Counted from the first letter of the stretch, positions 8,771 through 35,413 are shown. The stretch is 35,626 nucleotides of DNA from an uncultured Gammaproteobacteria bacterium (GCA_964432085.1 CAYSME010000003.1:1-35626); one strand, 5' to 3'. The notes: a model not told the origin generated them from the sequence alone. Numbers and translations: made by a program.

Positions 8771-8800
8771 ATAGAGACGCATTATATAATGCGTCTCTAT
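8771..8800. terminator. 30-nt perfect palindrome ATAGAGACGC-ATTATATAAT-GCGTCTCTAT followed by TTGTTTTT. It is a REP-like hairpin acting as the terminator of the DsbA-like gene.
   Basis: Palindrome read directly. It shares the TAGAGACGC stem with the hairpins at 22071 and 29613. Confidence 0.6.
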
Positions 8801-14185: not shown

Positions 14186-14200
14186 AATAAATTCGTTTTA

Positions 14201-14232
14201 ATATAAGGGCGAGGCATGCCTCGCCCTTATAT
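14201..14232. terminator. 32-nt perfect palindrome ATATAAGGGCGAGGCA/TGCCTCGCCCTTATAT followed by a T-run. It is a REP-like hairpin acting as the gyrA terminator.
   Basis: Read directly. It starts 16 nt after the gyrA stop. Confidence 0.6.
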
Positions 14233-14437
14233 TTTTCCATTACTATAGGGTGTACATATTGGGTAAGCATAAATTAGCAAAGCAATAATTTGAGTGCTAA
14301 CCTACTACATATTTTTAGTTTTACCGTAAATTAGGGACAAATTCACTAACACTAAAAAATAAATTTAGCAAATCAGTGCAGGGGAGTCATTTTAGGTAAT
14401 TTATCGAAAATATAGGGTATAACTTATTTTTTTATCT

Positions 14438-14462
14438 GTAGGGGCGAGGCATGCCTCGCCCC
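14438..14462 (+). repeat. REP-like hairpin GTAG-GGGCGAGGCATGCCTCGCCCC
   Basis: Its 20-nt core (GGGCGAGGCATGCCTCGCCC) is identical to the core of the hairpin at 14201..14232, here extended to a 22-nt palindrome (14441..14462) and preceded by GTAG. Confidence 0.6.
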
Positions 14463-21656: not shown

Positions 21657-21681
21657 ACCCTATTTTACCATTTTCAAGTTG

Positions 21682-21765
21682 TGCCGAAAGAGGGAATCGA
21701 ACCCCCATGGTGTTGCCACCACACGATTTTGAGTCGTGCGCGTCTGCCAGTTCCGCCATTTCGGC
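21682..21765 (-). tRNA. tRNA-Leu (anticodon CAA), long variable arm, CCA not encoded
   Basis: The reverse complement folds as acceptor GCCGAAA/TTTCGGC, anticodon arm CACGA-CTCAAAA-TCGTG, long extra arm, and T-arm GGGGG-TTCGATT-CCCTC. Confidence 0.85.
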
Positions 21766-21796
21766 TAAAAGTAAACTTATTATCTCACAACCAAAG

Positions 21797-22390
21797 CTAT
21801 TTATAAAACTTATCTTTTCCCCAATTTATAACATTGTTTTGAATATAATTTTTGATTATTAATAATTGTTCTTTATCTTTTATGATTTCATCATGAAAAC
21901 GGGGTTGCCAAGCGAAAAATAAATTATTTTGATTACAAATACGTTTTATTGATGATTTAAATTGATTTATTAATTTGGGAATTTCTTGTTTGGATTTAAT
22001 GTTTATCGTTTTAAAAAAATCTGGATGGTTTTTGTGTAAATGTATAACAACTGATTTTATTTTATTTTCATGTAGAGACGCCCCGCTGGGCGTCTCTACA
22101 GGGGTGCCAAATAATTGAATTAATAAATGTATATGGTTTGGCATTATTACGTATTTATGTAATTTAATATTTTTTCGTATTTCAAATGTTTTTAATAATT
22201 CAGATTTAGTTATTATTCCCATTTTTGATAATTCCATTTTATTATTAATAATTTTTCCAAAGAAATTATTATGGTTATAAGTACAGATGGTAATAAAGTA
22301 ATACCCGGGAGTGGAATAATTCCAATTGGTTAAACGAGGTGAATTGGCGCGATATTTATCAGAAAATTTATTATTAAAAACGTCATCCAC
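21797..22390 (-). CDS. IS200/IS605-superfamily Y1 (HUH) transposase-like protein, RAYT type
   Basis: N-terminal YYFITICTYN, HUH motif MPNHIHLLIQ, C-terminal catalytic-Tyr helix IKNYIQNNVINW. GTG start. Confidence 0.75.
   Translation of the reverse strand: MDDVFNNKFSDKYRANSPRLTNWNYSTPGYYFITICTYNHNNFFGKIINNKMELSKMGIITKSELLKTFEIRKNIKLHKYVIMPNHIHLLIQLFGTPVETPSGASLHENKIKSVVIHLHKNHPDFFKTINIKSKQEIPKLINQFKSSIKRICNQNNLFFAWQPRFHDEIIKDKEQLLIIKNYIQNNVINWGKDKFYK
22071..22100. repeat. REP-like hairpin TGTAGAGACGCCC-cgct-GGGCGTCTCTACA embedded in frame in the RAYT-like ORF
   Basis: 13-bp stem. Its 28-nt core matches the extragenic palindrome at 29613..29640 at 27 of 28 positions. It encodes VETPSGASL. Confidence 0.7.
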
Positions 22391-22420
22391 ATTTTATTGT
22401 AACATTTCAAACAATCAATT

Positions 22421-23731
22421 TTATTGTTTCTTTTCCACATCAAAAAAGCTAACTTGTTTTCCATTGAAATATAAATTAAAACTGCCTGTTGGACCATTTC
22501 TATGTTTCTCCACACTACACGTCACCATTTCTCTAACCTCTTCGTCTTCTCTATATAAAAAGAACACCACATCAGCATCCTGTTCAATACTTCCCGATTC
22601 TCTTAAATCAGACAATCTTGGCCGACCTCCCCTCGCCTCCATAGCCCTGGATAATTGAGCCAATGCTAAAATCGGTACTTTTAATTCTCTGGCTAAATTT
22701 TTTAACCCTTGAGAAATTTCCGACACTTCTTGTACTCGATTATCTCGAGTACTCCCATGCATTAACTGCAAATAATCAACCACAATAAATTTGATTCCCT
22801 TGTCCACCTGAAGTCTTCTGGCTTTAGTTCTTAATTCTGTTACTGTTAATCCTGGAGTATCATCAATATAAAGTGGGGCTTCTGCTAAAACACCCATTGC
22901 TTCAGATAAACTGTCAAAATCATTAACCGACAACTGCCCTGTTTTTAATTTCCATGCATCAATTAATCCCTGTCTTACCAATAAACGATCAACTAACTCT
23001 TCTTTACTCATTTCCAATGAAAAATAACAAACTGGCAATTTCTTTTCTACAGCCACATATCTGGCAATATTCAATCCAAAAGCCGTTTTACCTATACCTG
23101 GTCTTGCTGCCAAAATTAATAAATTACTATCCTGCATTCCAGCCAAAACATTATCCAATCCATTAAAACCACTTGGAACTCCTCTTAATCCTGTTCCCAT
23201 TTTTTGCAGTTCATCTAATCTATCAAAGCTCGCCGTTAACACTTCTTTCAACGAAGTAGGCACTGTTTTTAAATGTTTCTGCGATAAAGAAAAAATTTCT
23301 TGTTCGGCTATATCCAATAATTGATCTGCCGGTAAAGTCGGATCAAAAGCCTTTTCTGTAATTCTTCCAGAAGCCGAGATTAATTCTCTTTTGGCTGATA
23401 ACGATTTAATAATATGTCCATAACTTTCCACGTTTGCTGCCGTCGGCACTTCACTTGCTAATCTGGTCAAAAAACCTTTACCTCCAATTTTTTTTAATAC
23501 ATTCAATTCCTTTAATTTCTCTGCCACGGTCACAATATCAATCGGCATTCTTTCTTCATAAAGCTTCATCATTGCCTCATAAATCTTGCCATAATTTGAA
23601 TTATAAAAATGTTCCGGTCTCAAAAATTCTGACACACTTAAAACCGCATCATTATCAATCAAAACTGATCCCAACACGCAAATTTCCGCTTCTTCCGAAC
23701 TGGGCGGTAATCGAATTGCATCTGTTGCCAT
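22421..23731 (-). CDS. dnaB: Replicative DNA helicase DnaB
   Basis: PPSSEEAEICVLGSVL N-terminal domain, Walker A ARPGIGKTAF, VVDYLQLM, ALAQLSR, RESGSIEQDADVV. Confidence 0.95.
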   Translation of the reverse strand: MATDAIRLPPSSEEAEICVLGSVLIDNDAVLSVSEFLRPEHFYNSNYGKIYEAMMKLYEERMPIDIVTVAEKLKELNVLKKIGGKGFLTRLASEVPTAANVESYGHIIKSLSAKRELISASGRITEKAFDPTLPADQLLDIAEQEIFSLSQKHLKTVPTSLKEVLTASFDRLDELQKMGTGLRGVPSGFNGLDNVLAGMQDSNLLILAARPGIGKTAFGLNIARYVAVEKKLPVCYFSLEMSKEELVDRLLVRQGLIDAWKLKTGQLSVNDFDSLSEAMGVLAEAPLYIDDTPGLTVTELRTKARRLQVDKGIKFIVVDYLQLMHGSTRDNRVQEVSEISQGLKNLARELKVPILALAQLSRAMEARGGRPRLSDLRESGSIEQDADVVFFLYREDEEVREMVTCSVEKHRNGPTGSFNLYFNGKQVSFFDVEKKQ

Positions 23732-29022: not shown

Positions 29023-29616
29023 ATGATAAAAACTATTATTTTTGATGTTGGTGGAGTTTATTTAAAAGGCAGTTTTATCGATTTTGTTAATAAATCAAGA
29101 AAAATTCTAGGCGTAGATGAAAAATTTTATGCTGATAAAGAAGTAACTTTTGATAAAAAATTTAATGAAGGGAAAGTTTCTGCCAAAAAATGTTTTCAAA
29201 AATATTTTTCTGTACCAATTTCTGATTCTCAAATGAAACAAATAATAAAAATTTGGACCTCCACTTGGAAACCAACAAACTCTATGACTAATCTGGTTAC
29301 CAAACTAAGCCAAAATTACCAACTAGCCATTCTTTCTAATTCAGACCCTTTAAATTCACCAAATTATTATAAAAAAGGTTGGTACCAATATTTTGATCCA
29401 ATTGTTTTATCACACGAGGTTGGAATTTTAAAACCAAATAAAAAAATTTATCAAATACTTTTAAGTAAATTAAAGTCAAAACCATCAGAATGTGTTTATA
29501 TAGATGATCAAATAGATTGCCTTAAACCAGCTCAAGAAATGGGTATAAATACTATTTTATTTAAATCCCCCATCCAATTGAAAAAAGATTTAAAAAATCT
29601 TGGAATTTCCCAGTAG
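29023..29616 (+). CDS. HAD-superfamily hydrolase (subfamily IA-like)
   Basis: IIFDVGGV (motif I), ILSNS (motif II), YIDDQ (motif IV). Confidence 0.75.
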   Translation: MIKTIIFDVGGVYLKGSFIDFVNKSRKILGVDEKFYADKEVTFDKKFNEGKVSAKKCFQKYFSVPISDSQMKQIIKIWTSTWKPTNSMTNLVTKLSQNYQLAILSNSDPLNSPNYYKKGWYQYFDPIVLSHEVGILKPNKKIYQILLSKLKSKPSECVYIDDQIDCLKPAQEMGINTILFKSPIQLKKDLKNLGISQ

Positions 29617-29647
29617 AGACGCCCCGCGGGGCGTCTCTACTTTTTTT
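29613..29647. terminator. 28-nt perfect palindrome GTAGAGACGCCCCG/CGGGGCGTCTCTAC plus a T7 run. It is a REP-like hairpin acting as the HAD gene terminator.
   Basis: Read directly. The TAG stop of the HAD gene is the TAG of the GTAG head. Confidence 0.7.
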
Positions 29648-29944: not shown

Positions 29945-29972
29945 GTAAGGGCGGACCGATGTGTCCGCCCTT
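29945..29972 (+). repeat. REP-like hairpin GTAAGGGCGGAC-cgatgt-GTCCGCCCTT after rpmE
   Basis: 10-bp stem starting 17 nt after the rpmE stop, with the same GTA(A/G)GGGCG head as the hairpins at 14438 and 33897. Confidence 0.55.
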
Positions 29973-32960: not shown

Positions 32961-33707
32961 CTATTCTAACACCAATAACAATTTATCCATCCTAGCATTT
33001 ATCAACATCTTTCTTTTTTTGCCCAAATTTTCTTTCATAAAATCATCCCAAATCTCCTTTTCCAACCTTAACACCGGAATATCTATATCCACTTCTTTAA
33101 TCTCATCATTTCCTAAAACCACCACCGCATTGGCTCCAATCACTAAAGCCTTCAACAAAAAAGCCCTATCTAAATTTTCAGTAAATAAAACCGCCTCACC
33201 CATTTCATAATTAAGCATTTTAATATCATTCATAATTTTTATCTCTCCTTCTCCCCAGGTCTTTAATCCATTTAAACCCTGCCCTGGATATTCTTTCGCT
33301 TTAAACTCCAAAACCATTTTTCCATCTTCTATTTTTCCAACCTTAGCATCAACCGGTGAAAAAACTTCCTTTTTCTCGTCTTCAACTCTCTCTATTTTCA
33401 AATTTTTAAATTCATCAAAACCTAAGCAGATACCAGACATAGGAAAACATATATCTTTTTTAAAAGCTCCGGTTTTACAAAAAAGATCACCTTCAGATAC
33501 TGTTTTCTCATTAAAAAAATTATTCAACTCCTCTCTCTTCTCTTCACTCATTTTCGCCAAATTACCACTATAATCAAAAGTTTCCACTAAATGACTGTTA
33601 AAAACGGCTAATTTTTGTCCTTTCTCTACTTTATCTCCAACATCAACTAAAATCTTTGCCTTAATTGGCAGTTTAATTGTCCATGTTCCTTTATCTTTAA
33701 CCTTCAT
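32961..33707 (-). CDS. Hypothetical protein with lipoyl/hybrid-barrel-like segments, first gene of the CtpA-HtrA operon
   Basis: IKAKILVDVGDKVEKGQKLAV and VDAKVGKIEDGKMVLEF resemble barrel-sandwich hybrid motifs. Its stop directly abuts the ctpA ATG. A TATAAT box lies 6 nt upstream of its ATG. Confidence 0.5.
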   Translation of the reverse strand: MKVKDKGTWTIKLPIKAKILVDVGDKVEKGQKLAVFNSHLVETFDYSGNLAKMSEEKREELNNFFNEKTVSEGDLFCKTGAFKKDICFPMSGICLGFDEFKNLKIERVEDEKKEVFSPVDAKVGKIEDGKMVLEFKAKEYPGQGLNGLKTWGEGEIKIMNDIKMLNYEMGEAVLFTENLDRAFLLKALVIGANAVVVLGNDEIKEVDIDIPVLRLEKEIWDDFMKENLGKKRKMLINARMDKLLLVLE

Positions 33708-33732
33708 CTATTTATTATAACCAAAAAATCTC

Positions 33733-34230
33733 TTAAATATTCATCGGGTTCTCTGTAATATATTTTTTGATCATTAAATATTCTTTTTCATTCCTAATGA
33801 TTCGTTCATAATAATTTCGTTGCCATAATTTAAAACCAATTTCCTTTGATGTATTCATTTTCAAATATCCAATAATATTGGATAATAATGATCTATGTAG
33901 GGGCGATTCATGAATCGTCCCATTATTTAAATTAAAATTAATTTTATTAATATTCATTTTGGGCGAATCATGATTCGCCCCTACAATTTTAATGATCATG
34001 TGTAAATGATCTGGCATTATTTGGTAATCATCAATTCTGATTTTAAAACGATTTATTAAATTTAATAACCAAATTTTACATATCAAACCATTTTTGTTTA
34101 AAATCATCTGACTATTTTCAATTTCCCCAAAAACATTTTTACGATTTTGAACACACATTGTCACAAAATAATAACCGTTACCTGAATAATCATAATCGTT
34201 TAAACGAATCGATCTTCTGTGATATTTCAC
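33733..34230 (-). CDS. IS200/IS605-superfamily Y1 (HUH) transposase-like protein, RAYT type
   Basis: YYFVTMCVQNR, HUH motif MPDHLHMIIKI, C-terminal IKKYITENPMN catalytic-Tyr helix. GTG start. Confidence 0.75.
   Translation of the reverse strand: MKYHRRSIRLNDYDYSGNGYYFVTMCVQNRKNVFGEIENSQMILNKNGLICKIWLLNLINRFKIRIDDYQIMPDHLHMIIKIVGANHDSPKMNINKINFNLNNGTIHESPLHRSLLSNIIGYLKMNTSKEIGFKLWQRNYYERIIRNEKEYLMIKKYITENPMNI
33897..33984. repeat. Inverted pair of REP-like hairpins (REPIN-like doublet) embedded in frame in the second RAYT-like ORF
   Basis: GTAGGGGCGATTCATGAATCGTCCC (33897..33921) and GGGCGAATCATGATTCGCCCCTAC (33961..33984), with GTAG heads facing outward. They encode VGANHDSP ... GTIHESPLH. 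Confidence 0.7.
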
Positions 34231-34242
34231 ACGTTAATAATA

Positions 34243-34270
34243 CCAAAAACCCCTCTTTTCAAAGGGGTTT
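34243..34270 (-). terminator. Rho-independent terminator of rpsR
   Basis: On the minus strand: AAACCCCT-ttgaaaag-AGGGGTTT followed by a T-run, 23 nt after the rpsR stop. Confidence 0.65.
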
Positions 34271-34292
34271 AAAATCAATTTAAAAACGAGAT

Positions 34293-34544
34293 TTATTGTG
34301 TTGTAAAAGGCAATAAAGCTAAATGTCTGGCTTGTTTAATCGCCTTAACCAATTTTCTTTGATGTCTGGAACAAGTTCCACTAAATTGAGATCCAATAAT
34401 TCTAGATCTAGCAGATAAATACTCCTTCATTTTTTCATAATCCTGCCAATTAGGATTTGTATCAGTTTTACAAAAAGAACAGCCTTTTTCTCGACCTCTT
34501 CTCTTTGCAGCTAATATATTATCTTTTTTGCTTTTTTTAATCAT
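34293..34544 (-). CDS. rpsR: 30S ribosomal protein S18
   Basis: CSFCK ... YLSARSRIIGSQFSGTCSRHQRKLVKAIKQARHLALLPF. Strong Shine-Dalgarno AAGGAGAGG. Confidence 0.9.
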   Translation of the reverse strand: MIKKSKKDNILAAKRRGREKGCSFCKTDTNPNWQDYEKMKEYLSARSRIIGSQFSGTCSRHQRKLVKAIKQARHLALLPFTTQ

Positions 34545-34553
34545 ATCCTCTCC

Positions 34554-35081
34554 TTAAAAAGGCATTTCTTCAGCCTTCTTTTCTTCAGTAACTTCTTCAG
34601 TGGTAGTTTTTTCTTCCGTAACTGGAATTTCACCCAAATCATCCGGAATCACAATATCTTCCATTGGAGCATCTTGAGTTTCAAGTGGTAAATCTGCCTC
34701 ACCGCCTAAATCACCAGTTACATTATGTTGATCATTACTAACACCTTTATTATCAAGAATCACCATATCATCAATGATAATTTCTGCAATTTGTTTTTTA
34801 TTATTTTCTTGATCGACAAAATCTCTGTATTGAATTCGACCGTCGACATAAACTCTTCGACCTTTTGATAAAAGTTGTGAACAAAGTTCAGCTAATTTAT
34901 TCCAAGCCACAATTCGGTGAAATTGAGCATCTTCTTTTCTCTCACCTTGTTTGGTTACCCAAACTCTATTAGTAGCTAAACCGAAAGAAGCTACTGCCAT
35001 ACCGGCTGGAGTATATCTTAACTCTGGGTCACGAGTTAAATTACCTATTAACATTACCCTATTGAGACATCTACTTGGCAT
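34554..35081 (-). CDS. ssb: Single-stranded DNA-binding protein
   Basis: LNRVMLIGNLTRDPELRYTPAGMAVASFGLATN OB fold and an acidic tail ending EEMPF. The start is placed at ATG 35081. The ORF track gives GTG at 35099. Confidence 0.9.
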   Translation of the reverse strand: MPSRCLNRVMLIGNLTRDPELRYTPAGMAVASFGLATNRVWVTKQGERKEDAQFHRIVAWNKLAELCSQLLSKGRRVYVDGRIQYRDFVDQENNKKQIAEIIIDDMVILDNKGVSNDQHNVTGDLGGEADLPLETQDAPMEDIVIPDDLGEIPVTEEKTTTEEVTEEKKAEEMPF

Positions 35082-35122
35082 AGTTTTATTTACCCCCACA
35101 ACTGCGGGGTCTCCTCATTTCT

Positions 35123-35413
35123 TTAAATTTTTAATATTAAATAACGAATAATATTTGTTTCTCTGTCTAGTAAAAGATTAAAGTCTTTTACTTTTAAACT
35201 TTCTTTAGACTCTACGTCTAAAACCCAAAAATCACCTTTATCATGATCTTGTATTTGATAAGCTAACTCTTTAAGACCCATATGATCTTTATTAGTTATC
35301 TCTGCCTTATTACTTTCTAACCAAGAATAAGCCTTATTCAAAACTTTTTCTTTGTCTTCAGTCTTTGGACTTAAAACTATTATGATTTGATATTGATATT
35401 TACTTCCTTTCAT
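35123..35413 (-). CDS. rpsF: 30S ribosomal protein S6
   Basis: YQIIIVLSP ... DHMGLKELAYQIQDHDKGDFWVL ... NIIRYLILK. Conserved rpsF-ssb-rpsR order. Confidence 0.85.
   Translation of the reverse strand: MKGSKYQYQIIIVLSPKTEDKEKVLNKAYSWLESNKAEITNKDHMGLKELAYQIQDHDKGDFWVLDVESKESLKVKDFNLLLDRETNIIRYLILKI

Follow-up and report, generated by a model that had tools for sequence, protein, structure and literature searches.

A probable inverted REP pair, read in frame, within the gene for a REP-associated tyrosine transposase of a Shapirobacteria-like bacterium

Introduction

Why would the gene for a nuclease that is presumed to act on short DNA hairpins carry such hairpins within its own reading frame? 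The question is raised by a contig of 35,626 nucleotides (GCA_964432085.1, CAYSME010000003.1:1-35626; this whole stretch is termed the window), which can be found in anaerobic-digester and bioreactor metagenomes. It encodes two paralogues of the REP-associated tyrosine transposases (RAYTs, or TnpA-REP; REP, repetitive extragenic palindrome), named here RAYT-1 and RAYT-2, and an 88-nt element inside RAYT-2 is very probably an inverted, heads-outward pair of REPs of the family belonging to this enzyme clade, lodged in the variable loop of a protein of TnpA-REP subclass 2.4. In-gene REPs of this kind have been described before for subclass 2.4 (RAYT group 4 of Bertels et al., 2017), where they are inserted in the tnpA-REP gene itself (Quentin, Siguier, Chandler and Fichant, 2018; PMC6006769), and the window adds a member from the candidate phyla radiation (CPR). 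Because that study describes the arrangement as a hallmark of the subfamily, the window does not represent a new kind of system.

The Hairpin Doublet of RAYT-2

The gene, the doublet and the catalytic motifs are positioned in the window as follows (ORF, open reading frame).

33733..34230, minus strand: RAYT-2, HUH/Y1 TnpA-REP-type gene with a GTG start, 165 codons open (ORF translation)
34000..34008, minus strand: codons of the HUH motif, H75-L76-H77 (translation)
33961..33984, minus strand: REP 1, GTAGGGGCGAATCATGATTCGCCC, GTAG foot on the coding strand, perfect stem of 10 bp
33922..33960, no strand: A/T spacer of 39 nt between REP 1 and REP 2, read as KMNINKINFNLNN
33897..33921, plus strand: REP 2, GTAGGGGCGATTCATGAATCGTCCC, with one G-T mispair and its foot on the template strand
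33745..33762, minus strand: catalytic tyrosine helix YITENP (Y157, N161, P162) (translation)

REP 1 (33961..33984), in which the GTAG foot of GGGCGAATCATGATTCGCCCCTAC falls on the minus strand, is translated as V83-G-A-N-H-D-S-P90, and REP 2, on the coding strand, as G104-T-I-H-E-S-P-L-H112. The two are inverted with their heads outward around a spacer in which a single C stands among A and T, and the whole 88-nt element is in frame. The original prediction of an inverted, in-frame doublet resembling a REPIN (a pair of inverted REPs) was borne out in its coordinates, outward heads, 39-nt spacer and open ORF. The arms of the doublet form a 25-nt inverted repeat with 88% complementarity, and the 103-nt stretch around it folds as one long hairpin, both as DNA (-27.2 kcal/mol, z=-8.3) and as RNA (-41.2 kcal/mol, z=-9.0), while none of 200 shuffles folds as well. 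No second copy of the doublet can be found within the 35.6-kb window, and a search of the window for Rfam families gave no match beyond two tRNAs. A sense-strand intrinsic terminator inside RAYT-2 was rejected, since on the mRNA strand a U run is absent after either in-gene hairpin; a terminator-like appearance is confined to the antisense side of REP 2.

The RAYT-2 Protein and Its Variable Loop

In the translation of RAYT-2, IMPDHLHMIIKI is followed by the hairpin-encoded VGANHDSPKMNINKINFNLNNGTIHESPLH, then by RSLLSNIIGYLKMN, LWQRNYYERIIRNE and YITENPMNI, the hairpin-encoded segment sitting between PDHLHMIIKI and RSLLS. Among 32 aligned homologues, H75, H77 and Y157 are invariant, and N161 and P162 nearly so; the Pfam domain Y1_Tnp is matched with E=3e-7 (31 bits vs a curated cutoff of 23). 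An AlphaFold2 model built with the same 32 homologues as input has a mean pLDDT of 83.6 and places V83-H112 (30 residues) after the HUH strand (75-82) and ahead of the helix that follows (115-131). Inside this segment, residues 86-108 have a pLDDT below 50, and in the model the low-confidence stretch is probably disordered and outside the core. The top Foldseek match is 4er8_A (E=1.2e-7, TM 0.64), the Escherichia coli REP-associated tyrosine transposase bound to a REP hairpin, with the IS200, IS608 and ISDra2 transposases ranking after it; 29 PDB matches were obtained at E<=0.001, and the 30 best-ranked were all structures of Y1 transposases or putative transposases.

Regarding the residues that would contact DNA, a phmmer alignment pairs W136, Q137, E142, R146, Y157 and N161 of RAYT-2 with W94, Q95, E100, R104, Y115 and N119 of 4ER8. 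In E. coli, W94, Q95, E100, R104 and H101 are involved in the interaction with the GTAG guide, N119 is part of the metal site and the tyrosine is catalytic (Quentin et al., 2018). The GTAG-contacting set W94, Q95, E100 and R104 is retained in RAYT-2, and the position of H101 is taken by R143, an H-to-R substitution that has been reported for subclasses 2.5 and 2.7 (Quentin et al., 2018). Judged by the model and the alignment, RAYT-2 is a protein with the HUH/Y1 fold, its catalytic residues and the GTAG-contacting residues; the Pfam match, the 4ER8 match and the residue pairing agree with the RAYT-like identity first proposed for it.

RAYT-2 also displays both signatures given for class 2, namely Y-x3-NP (rather than Y-x3-Q), as YITENP, and WQ, as LWQRNYYER (Quentin et al., 2018), and the NCBIfam IS200 model reaches only 20 bits. 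Its C-terminus lies 8 residues past Y157, the model ending in the tyrosine helix with no tail domain. Close homologues belong to Candidatus Shapirobacteria and other Microgenomates and are named RayT in their sources, and relatives at E ~1e-30 can be found in Cyanobacteria, Bacteroidetes and many other phyla. In the collection's gene call (P0001) RAYT-2 has 141 amino acids, apparently starting from M25 (34158-34230 affected). The reading of 165 amino acids is right, because the GTG at 34230 is conserved and the N-terminal MKYHRRSIRL is common to all homologues; this start and the 5' end are kept in the orthologues.

Hairpins at the Same Site in Relatives

From the HUH strand to the RSLLSKIIGYLKMN helix, the 32 aligned homologues are hypervariable in length. 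The segment is made of peptide repeats of the VGAxHxSP or RAIRESPL type in 0 to >5 copies, and their residue changes are paired as the palindrome dictates (AIHES, ANHDS, AHHDA, AIRES, AVREP). The comparison covered 80 loci from GTDB genomes and 80 metagenome loci found with RAYT-1 homologues. Perfect hairpins with a GT[AG]G foot lie ~243-280 nt into the gene in 59 of the 80 GTDB relatives, the genomes of the hairpin survey spanning Bacteroidota, Chloroflexota, Cyanobacteria, Proteobacteria, Spirochaetes, Nitrospirota, Patescibacteria and others, and about one quarter of the relatives have no detectable in-gene hairpin. Hairpin density is 1.95/kb in the genes vs 0.177/kb in 1.7 Mb of flanks. 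When hairpins are not pre-selected, the 8-nt foot in genes leads into a perfect stem of no fewer than 7 bp in 80-81% of cases, vs 0-1% in shuffled sequence. Since 53 and 42 distinct 6-mers can be found just above the foot, the structure is kept while the sequence changes; apex variation is fully compensated between paired bases, and the foot stays the same throughout a clade.

The in-gene layouts comprise 39 heads-outward ('+-') and 43 double-foot arrangements, with no heads-inward ('-+') one. As for the reading frame, 96 of the 119 in-gene feet are read with GTA as a codon, 22 as xGT-AGx and a single one in the frame that reads TAG; the stop-containing frame is avoided or purged in in-gene hairpins. 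The peptides GRGNRAPT, GRANPAPT, NTRATTRVAPT and CRDVxxxVST, which recur in proteins called RayT or 'hypothetical', result from reading the two palindromes in the other open frame, other-frame peptides and read-through cases occurring among P0016, P0032, P0058 and P0140-P0158, and the N-terminal extensions GRFMNRPY (P0018) and RAIHKSPV (P0005) are upstream REPs within over-long ORF calls.

It can be argued that VGAxHxSP and GxIHESPL constitute a functional protein motif of which the palindromy is a by-product, as 100 of 117 close homologues have the motif, whose place after the HUH strand is fixed. Such a motif is highly improbable, considering that paired residue changes follow the palindrome, that residues 86-108 are modelled at a pLDDT below 50, that the copy number runs from 0 to >5 and that the same DNA is read in two frames, as VETxxxASL and as CRDVxxxVST, in different homologues. 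Because frames switch and identical sequences can be found outside genes in the same genomes, this explanation is effectively refuted and, with the variable copy number, was rejected in favour of a REP pair read through by the gene.

In the orthologues L081 and L082, whose amino-acid identity is 79% and 76%, the two hairpins are both retained and the frame stays open. REP 1 is identical in both, the stem of REP 2 is perfect in L081, and the spacer measures 39 nt in the window, 57 nt in L081 and 84 nt in L082. A recent insertion disrupting the gene, a possibility raised in the original prediction, was rejected, as orthologues at 76-79% identity keep the doublet and the frame. When public metagenome runs were examined for excision or an indel of the doublet, the assembled contigs contained no joint inside RAYT-2, such contigs being unable to show absence. 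Third codon positions are invariant at 16/16 sites in the hairpins vs 85/148 in the rest of the gene (p=3e-4), which points to a constraint on the nucleotide sequence of the hairpins itself, only three orthologous sequences standing behind this test.

Pairing of Enzyme Clade and Hairpin Class

The second paralogue of the window and its own palindrome are positioned as follows.

21797..22390, minus strand: RAYT-1, Y1 paralogue of 197 amino acids between dnaB and tRNA-Leu
22072..22099, no strand: class-A double-foot REP in RAYT-1, GTAGAGACGCC...GGCGTCTCTAC, in frame, read VETPSGASL

RAYT-1 is 35% identical to RAYT-2, with HIHLLI (NHIH) as HUH motif and YIQNNV as tyrosine motif, and is matched by the NCBIfam model REP_Tyr_transpos with E=3.5e-12 (46.4 bits vs a cutoff of 80). 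Its palindrome GTAGAGACGCCCAGCGGGGCGTCTCTAC (22072..22099) is single, lies in frame directly after the HUH strand, and is identical at 27 of 28 positions to the extragenic copy at 29613. A search for GC-rich hairpins in the 35.6 kb returned seven perfect ones, the imperfect REP 2 being an eighth, and all eight fall in two head classes. Class A, with head TAGAGACGC, is found at 8771, 22071 (inside RAYT-1) and 29612, and class B, with head TA(A/G)GGGCG, at 14200, 14441 and 29947 and twice inside RAYT-2. The claim that a second paralogue holds a different hairpin class stands, RAYT-1 carrying class A and RAYT-2 class B. The GTARGGGCG head occurs four times in the window vs 0.09 expected, a number that none of 100 shuffles reaches.

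Across 164 related loci the foot follows the enzyme clade, the in-gene foot being GTAGAGA at 46:1 in RAYT-1-like genes and GTAGGGG at 69:1 in RAYT-2-like genes. Flanking hairpins are divided likewise, with 63 of class A and 2 of class B near RAYT-1-like genes, and 120 of class B and 6 of class A near RAYT-2-like genes. Among the top protein homologues, 100 of the 117 of RAYT-2 contain class-B peptides and none class-A peptides; 68 of the 91 of RAYT-1 contain class-A peptides and none class-B ones. Within a class, flanking hairpins match the in-gene hairpin of their own locus in 46% of cases vs 2.4% for other loci (16 nt, at most 2 mismatches), and when only the apex is compared, with the same foot, the match is 60% for the own locus vs 3.6% for others. 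Both paralogues are present in one Shapirobacteria genome (L083), each with its own class in the gene and in the flanks: for the RAYT-2-like gene, identical GTAGGGGCGATTCATGAATCGCCC copies lie upstream (two), within it (two) and across its stop codon, and class-A hairpins are located both in and beside the RAYT-1-like gene. The 3' REP in L083 is partly translated (…KCRGDS*). These sequence counts very strongly suggest that the pairing of clade and hairpin is specific, as had been proposed from the window alone, the effect being far beyond sampling despite the non-independence of the counts.

Extragenic Copies in the Window

Five hairpins of the two classes lie outside the RAYT genes, and a sixth, near the RAYT-2 start, is a REP of neither class.

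8771..8800, no strand: extragenic class-A-like palindrome, ATAGAGACGC...GCGTCTCTAT, 19 nt after a thioredoxin-like ORF
14200..14233, no strand: extragenic class-B-like palindrome, TATAAGGGCGAGGCATGCCTCGCCCTTATA, 15 nt after gyrA, then a T run
14438..14462, plus strand: extragenic class-B REP, GTAGGGGCGAGGCATGCCTCGCCCC, downstream of a convergent XerC/D-like integrase gene
29613..29640, plus strand: extragenic class-A double-foot REP, with a T run after it
29945..29972, plus strand: extragenic class-B REP, GTAAGGGCGGACCGATGTGTCCGCCCTT, 17 nt after rpmE
34247..34270, minus strand: terminator-like rpsR hairpin 16 nt upstream of the start of RAYT-2, AAACCCCTTTGAAAAGAGGGGTTT with a T run

Dispersed relatives with the GTA(A/G)GGGCG head had been proposed at three sites. 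This holds for 14438 and 29945 and does not for 14201, where the head is ATAAGGGCG (ATAA); the 14201 copy is related to the one at 14438 through an identical 20-nt apex. This GGGCGAGGCATGCCTCGCCC-apex pair (14200-14462) brackets ~205 nt of the ~410 nt that separate gyrA from the XerC/D-like integrase gene convergent with it, a gap in which nothing matches Rfam.

All five extragenic copies are situated at gene 3' ends, following the thioredoxin-like ORF, gyrA, the XerC/D-like integrase gene, the HAD-hydrolase gene and rpmE. The 29613 copy tops the list of terminator-like hairpins (13 pairs, 8 of them G-C, the most listed). The HAD-hydrolase ORF (29023..29616) takes its stop codon from the TAG of this class-A foot, with a T run coming after, so that one element supplies both stop codon and terminator. 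The extragenic copies probably double as transcription terminators, since all lie just after stop codons and the 29613 copy heads the terminator-like list.

A stricter version of this idea holds that the extragenic GTA(A/G)GGGCG hairpins of the window are ordinary intrinsic terminators rather than current substrates of RAYT-2, their foot resembling that of the in-gene REPs through old common descent or convergence. Their apices, GAGGCATGCCTC and GACCGATGTGTC, differ from the in-gene ATTCATGAAT and AATCATGATT, they all come directly after stop codons, two with T runs, and the 20-kb loci of L081 and L082 are almost devoid of class-B copies outside the gene. This view is nevertheless rather unlikely: it does not account for a foot present four times vs 0.09 expected, nor for every GC-rich hairpin of the window bearing one of two RAYT-associated feet, and across genomes the flank foot class tracks the RAYT clade (120:6 and 63:2). 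REPs are moreover known at gene 3' ends (PMC3733652), so that terminator and REP are not exclusive. Within the window, the evidence for pairing is weaker for RAYT-2 than for RAYT-1, because the three extragenic class-B hairpins share with the in-gene copies only the 9-nt foot and not the apex, and all are placed at gene 3' ends as terminators are.

Proposed Mechanism and Weighing of the Assignment

By analogy with the biochemistry of the TnpA-REP enzymes of E. coli, Stenotrophomonas and Marinomonas, from which the mechanism is drawn, RAYT-2 would bind a hairpin folded in single-stranded DNA along with the GTAG foot, for instance at a replication fork, and would cut and rejoin the DNA next to the hairpin. 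Either this activity or gene conversion between copies may keep the in-gene and dispersed copies in step. The REP pair, in frame between the HUH strand (β3) and helix αC, would be tolerated since this loop is permissive, with only insertions in an open frame surviving.

Several points weigh against the assignment of the doublet to an active REP family of a subclass 2.4 enzyme. The cross-genome counts are not phylogenetically independent, and the genome data for the window organism amount to 35.6 kb. REP 2 contains a mispair, none of the extragenic hairpins of the window has the apex of the RAYT-2 copies, and no GT[AG]G-footed REP flanks RAYT-2 in the window. The published RAYT assays cover groups 2 and 3 only, not subclass 2.4 (PMC8266576). 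RAYT-2 scores 58.9 bits with REP_Tyr_transpos (NF047646), below the 80-bit equivalog cutoff, though this is the best-scoring NCBIfam model for both paralogues, and its DHLH and YITENP depart from the subclass consensus NH[IFV]H and YIxNNP. The latter are MEME consensus motifs, not strict rules (Quentin et al., 2018), and the 32 aligned homologues vary in this motif, with N or D, and with I, L, F, V or M at the middle HuH position. The REPtron arrangement, with REPs within ~1 kb of the gene, is provided by the two REPs inside RAYT-2.

Comparison With Known Systems

The REPs of subclass 2.4 are either long REPs with a G-C stem base or 'double foot' REPs, GT[AG]G...C[TC]AC, the double foot possibly arising by central deletion of an inverted dimer (Quentin et al., 2018); RAYT-2 holds the dimer form and RAYT-1 the double-foot form. 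As in that subclass, the foot GT[AG]G is followed by G-C pairs (GTAG then GGGCG in the RAYT-2 copies), a double foot GTAG...CTAC is found in RAYT-1 and in the 29613 copy, the REPs are inserted in frame and with variable length between β3 and αC, the protein (~165-200 amino acids) has the WQ motif and Y-x3-NP and no C-terminal tail, and more than one distantly related copy occurs per genome. Unlike in the published summary, where subclass 2.4 is plentiful in Cyanobacteria and in Bacteroidetes and scattered over various phyla (Quentin et al., 2018), the host is a CPR bacterium (Shapirobacteria-like, ~32% GC); no relevant work on RAYTs in Patescibacteria was found in the literature searched. Group 4 RAYTs are weakly associated with abundant extragenic 16-mers (Bertels et al., PMC5581495).

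The best structural match is the E. coli TnpA-REP/REP-BIME system (BIME, bacterial interspersed mosaic element; 4ER8; Ton-Hoang 2012 and Messing 2012, as relayed in PMC8266576 and PMC6006769). It shares with RAYT-2 the W, Q, E and R contacting GTAG, the GTAG at the hairpin foot and the location of REPs at gene 3' ends. In contrast, the E. coli enzyme belongs to subclass 2.2 with only 19% sequence identity, and its REPs are bulged in the stem and located outside the gene. The Pseudomonas REPIN-RAYT system (Bertels and Rainey, 2011; PMC3116915) likewise has inverted REPs with a short spacer forming one hairpin, and a REP family of its own for each RAYT paralogue, but its REPINs are extragenic with hundreds of copies, whereas the present doublet is within a coding sequence and occurs once in 35.6 kb. 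GTAG REPs have also been documented inside ORFs, as have Rickettsia palindromic elements (RPEs), both being in frame and translated to surface loops with the protein not destroyed (Di Nocera et al., 2013; PMC3733652). Their hosts are unrelated genes, often of replication or repair, while in the present case the REPs are hosted by the gene for the enzyme that presumably acts on them. IS200/IS605 TnpA resembles RAYT-2 in its HUH/Y1 fold and in hairpin recognition on single-stranded DNA, but its hairpins are the subterminal ends of a mobile element and its tyrosine motif is Y-x3-Q.

Genomic Context and Gene Mobility

In an ~85%-identical contig from the same sample, RAYT-2 is missing as a whole, the joint being 33698|34292 with 67 nt between, and in the L081 genome the site between rpsR and a gene of 248 amino acids is empty, the RAYT-2 orthologue being beside rplL instead. 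The interval from the rpsR terminator to the 248-amino-acid gene (33699-34291 in the window) differs in content from one related Shapirobacteria genome to another: RAYT-2 occupies it in the window, it is empty (59 nt) in L166 (L166:2942-3000) and in a contig from run X1, and at the same rpsR site L164 (1434-3000) and L165 have a different, P0058-like RAYT together with an ORF of 172 amino acids, an insert flanked by the duplicated terminator hairpin AACCCCGC-nnnn-GCGGGGTTTTTGGT. The L164 RAYT has a TAA in its conserved N-terminal HRRSIR codons (L164:1527-1545, CACAGATAATCA) and may be a pseudogene or use a downstream start; the L165 RAYT is called 13 residues longer. An 8-nt TTTTTGGT is present at both window junctions of the RAYT-2 interval and may be a target-site duplication or, equally, a repeated -10-like promoter motif. 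An interval that is empty, filled by RAYT-2 or filled by another RAYT, with junction repeats, suggests that the vicinity of the rpsR terminator is a recurrent landing place of RAYT genes.

RAYT-2 orthologues at 57-79% identity have differing neighbourhoods (L081:10001-10544; L082:10001-10574; L083:9877-10556), two genomes having the gene convergent with rplL-rplJ and one having it between tsf and frr. In every case it abuts a hairpin, either a terminator of the AAACCCC...GGGGTTT type or a class-B REP, contexts that differ from the stable inheritance at a single locus reported for RAYT groups 2 and 3. Mobility of the gene as a REP-bounded unit was rejected, as the window, L081 and L082 are homologous no farther than ~20 nt from the ORF, and flanking REPs are absent.

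Each RAYT gene of the window comes immediately downstream of single-strand-DNA or replication genes that share its strand (21681-23731; 33733-35413), RAYT-1 following dnaB and preceding tRNA-Leu(CAA), and RAYT-2 following rpsF-ssb-rpsR, a placement that may be coincidental. The GC skew is negative across the whole window (1-35626) with no sign change, which puts the window on one replichore.

Significance of the In-Gene Copies

With regard to why the REPs lie inside the gene, it is possible, and only tentatively proposed, that they are kept there for a job, either as a founder copy of the substrate, which the RAYT gene would bring to every genome it reaches as a self-contained unit, or as a brake in cis, the enzyme binding the hairpin of its gene or mRNA and so restraining its own expression. 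Synonymous sites are frozen in the hairpins (16/16 vs 57% elsewhere), the site is filled in both deep clades and in ~75% of relatives, the heads-outward orientation is strict (39 to 0), the doublet RNA hairpin is very stable (z=-9), and RAYT-2 has no flanking REPs yet is present or absent at the rpsR site and found in other contexts in relatives. The frozen sites and strict orientation favour selection of the in-gene copies. Conversely, about one quarter of relatives have no in-gene hairpin, so that it is not indispensable, copy number and spacer length are very variable, the synonymous-site result comes from three orthologues only, and extragenic copies overwriting the in-gene one would produce the same match. 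It is more doubtful that the in-gene pair is a selected cis-element making the RAYT gene a minimal, self-contained REPtron able to found matching REPs, a unit that appears to have landed here beside ribosomal-gene terminators; throttling of its own expression by the hairpin could be an alternative or an addition to this role.

As to the REP pair read through by its own gene, the window extends a published oddity, a nuclease gene containing its own target hairpins, to a reduced-genome CPR bacterium, with two pairs of paralogue and hairpin side by side. The counts sharpen the published picture, in that the foot follows the clade, pairs are only heads-outward, the stop frame is purged and synonymous sites are frozen, and the reason why REPs lie inside the gene becomes a testable question. 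Annotators gain a simple origin for VGAIHESPL, VETxxxASL, GRGNRAPT and CRDVxxxVST in 'hypothetical' and RayT proteins. What remains novel is the possible role of the in-gene location together with the apparent mobility of the gene to terminator-adjacent sites; if the self-contained REPtron were true, a RAYT unit could arrive at another site or in another genome and give rise there to REPs that match it.

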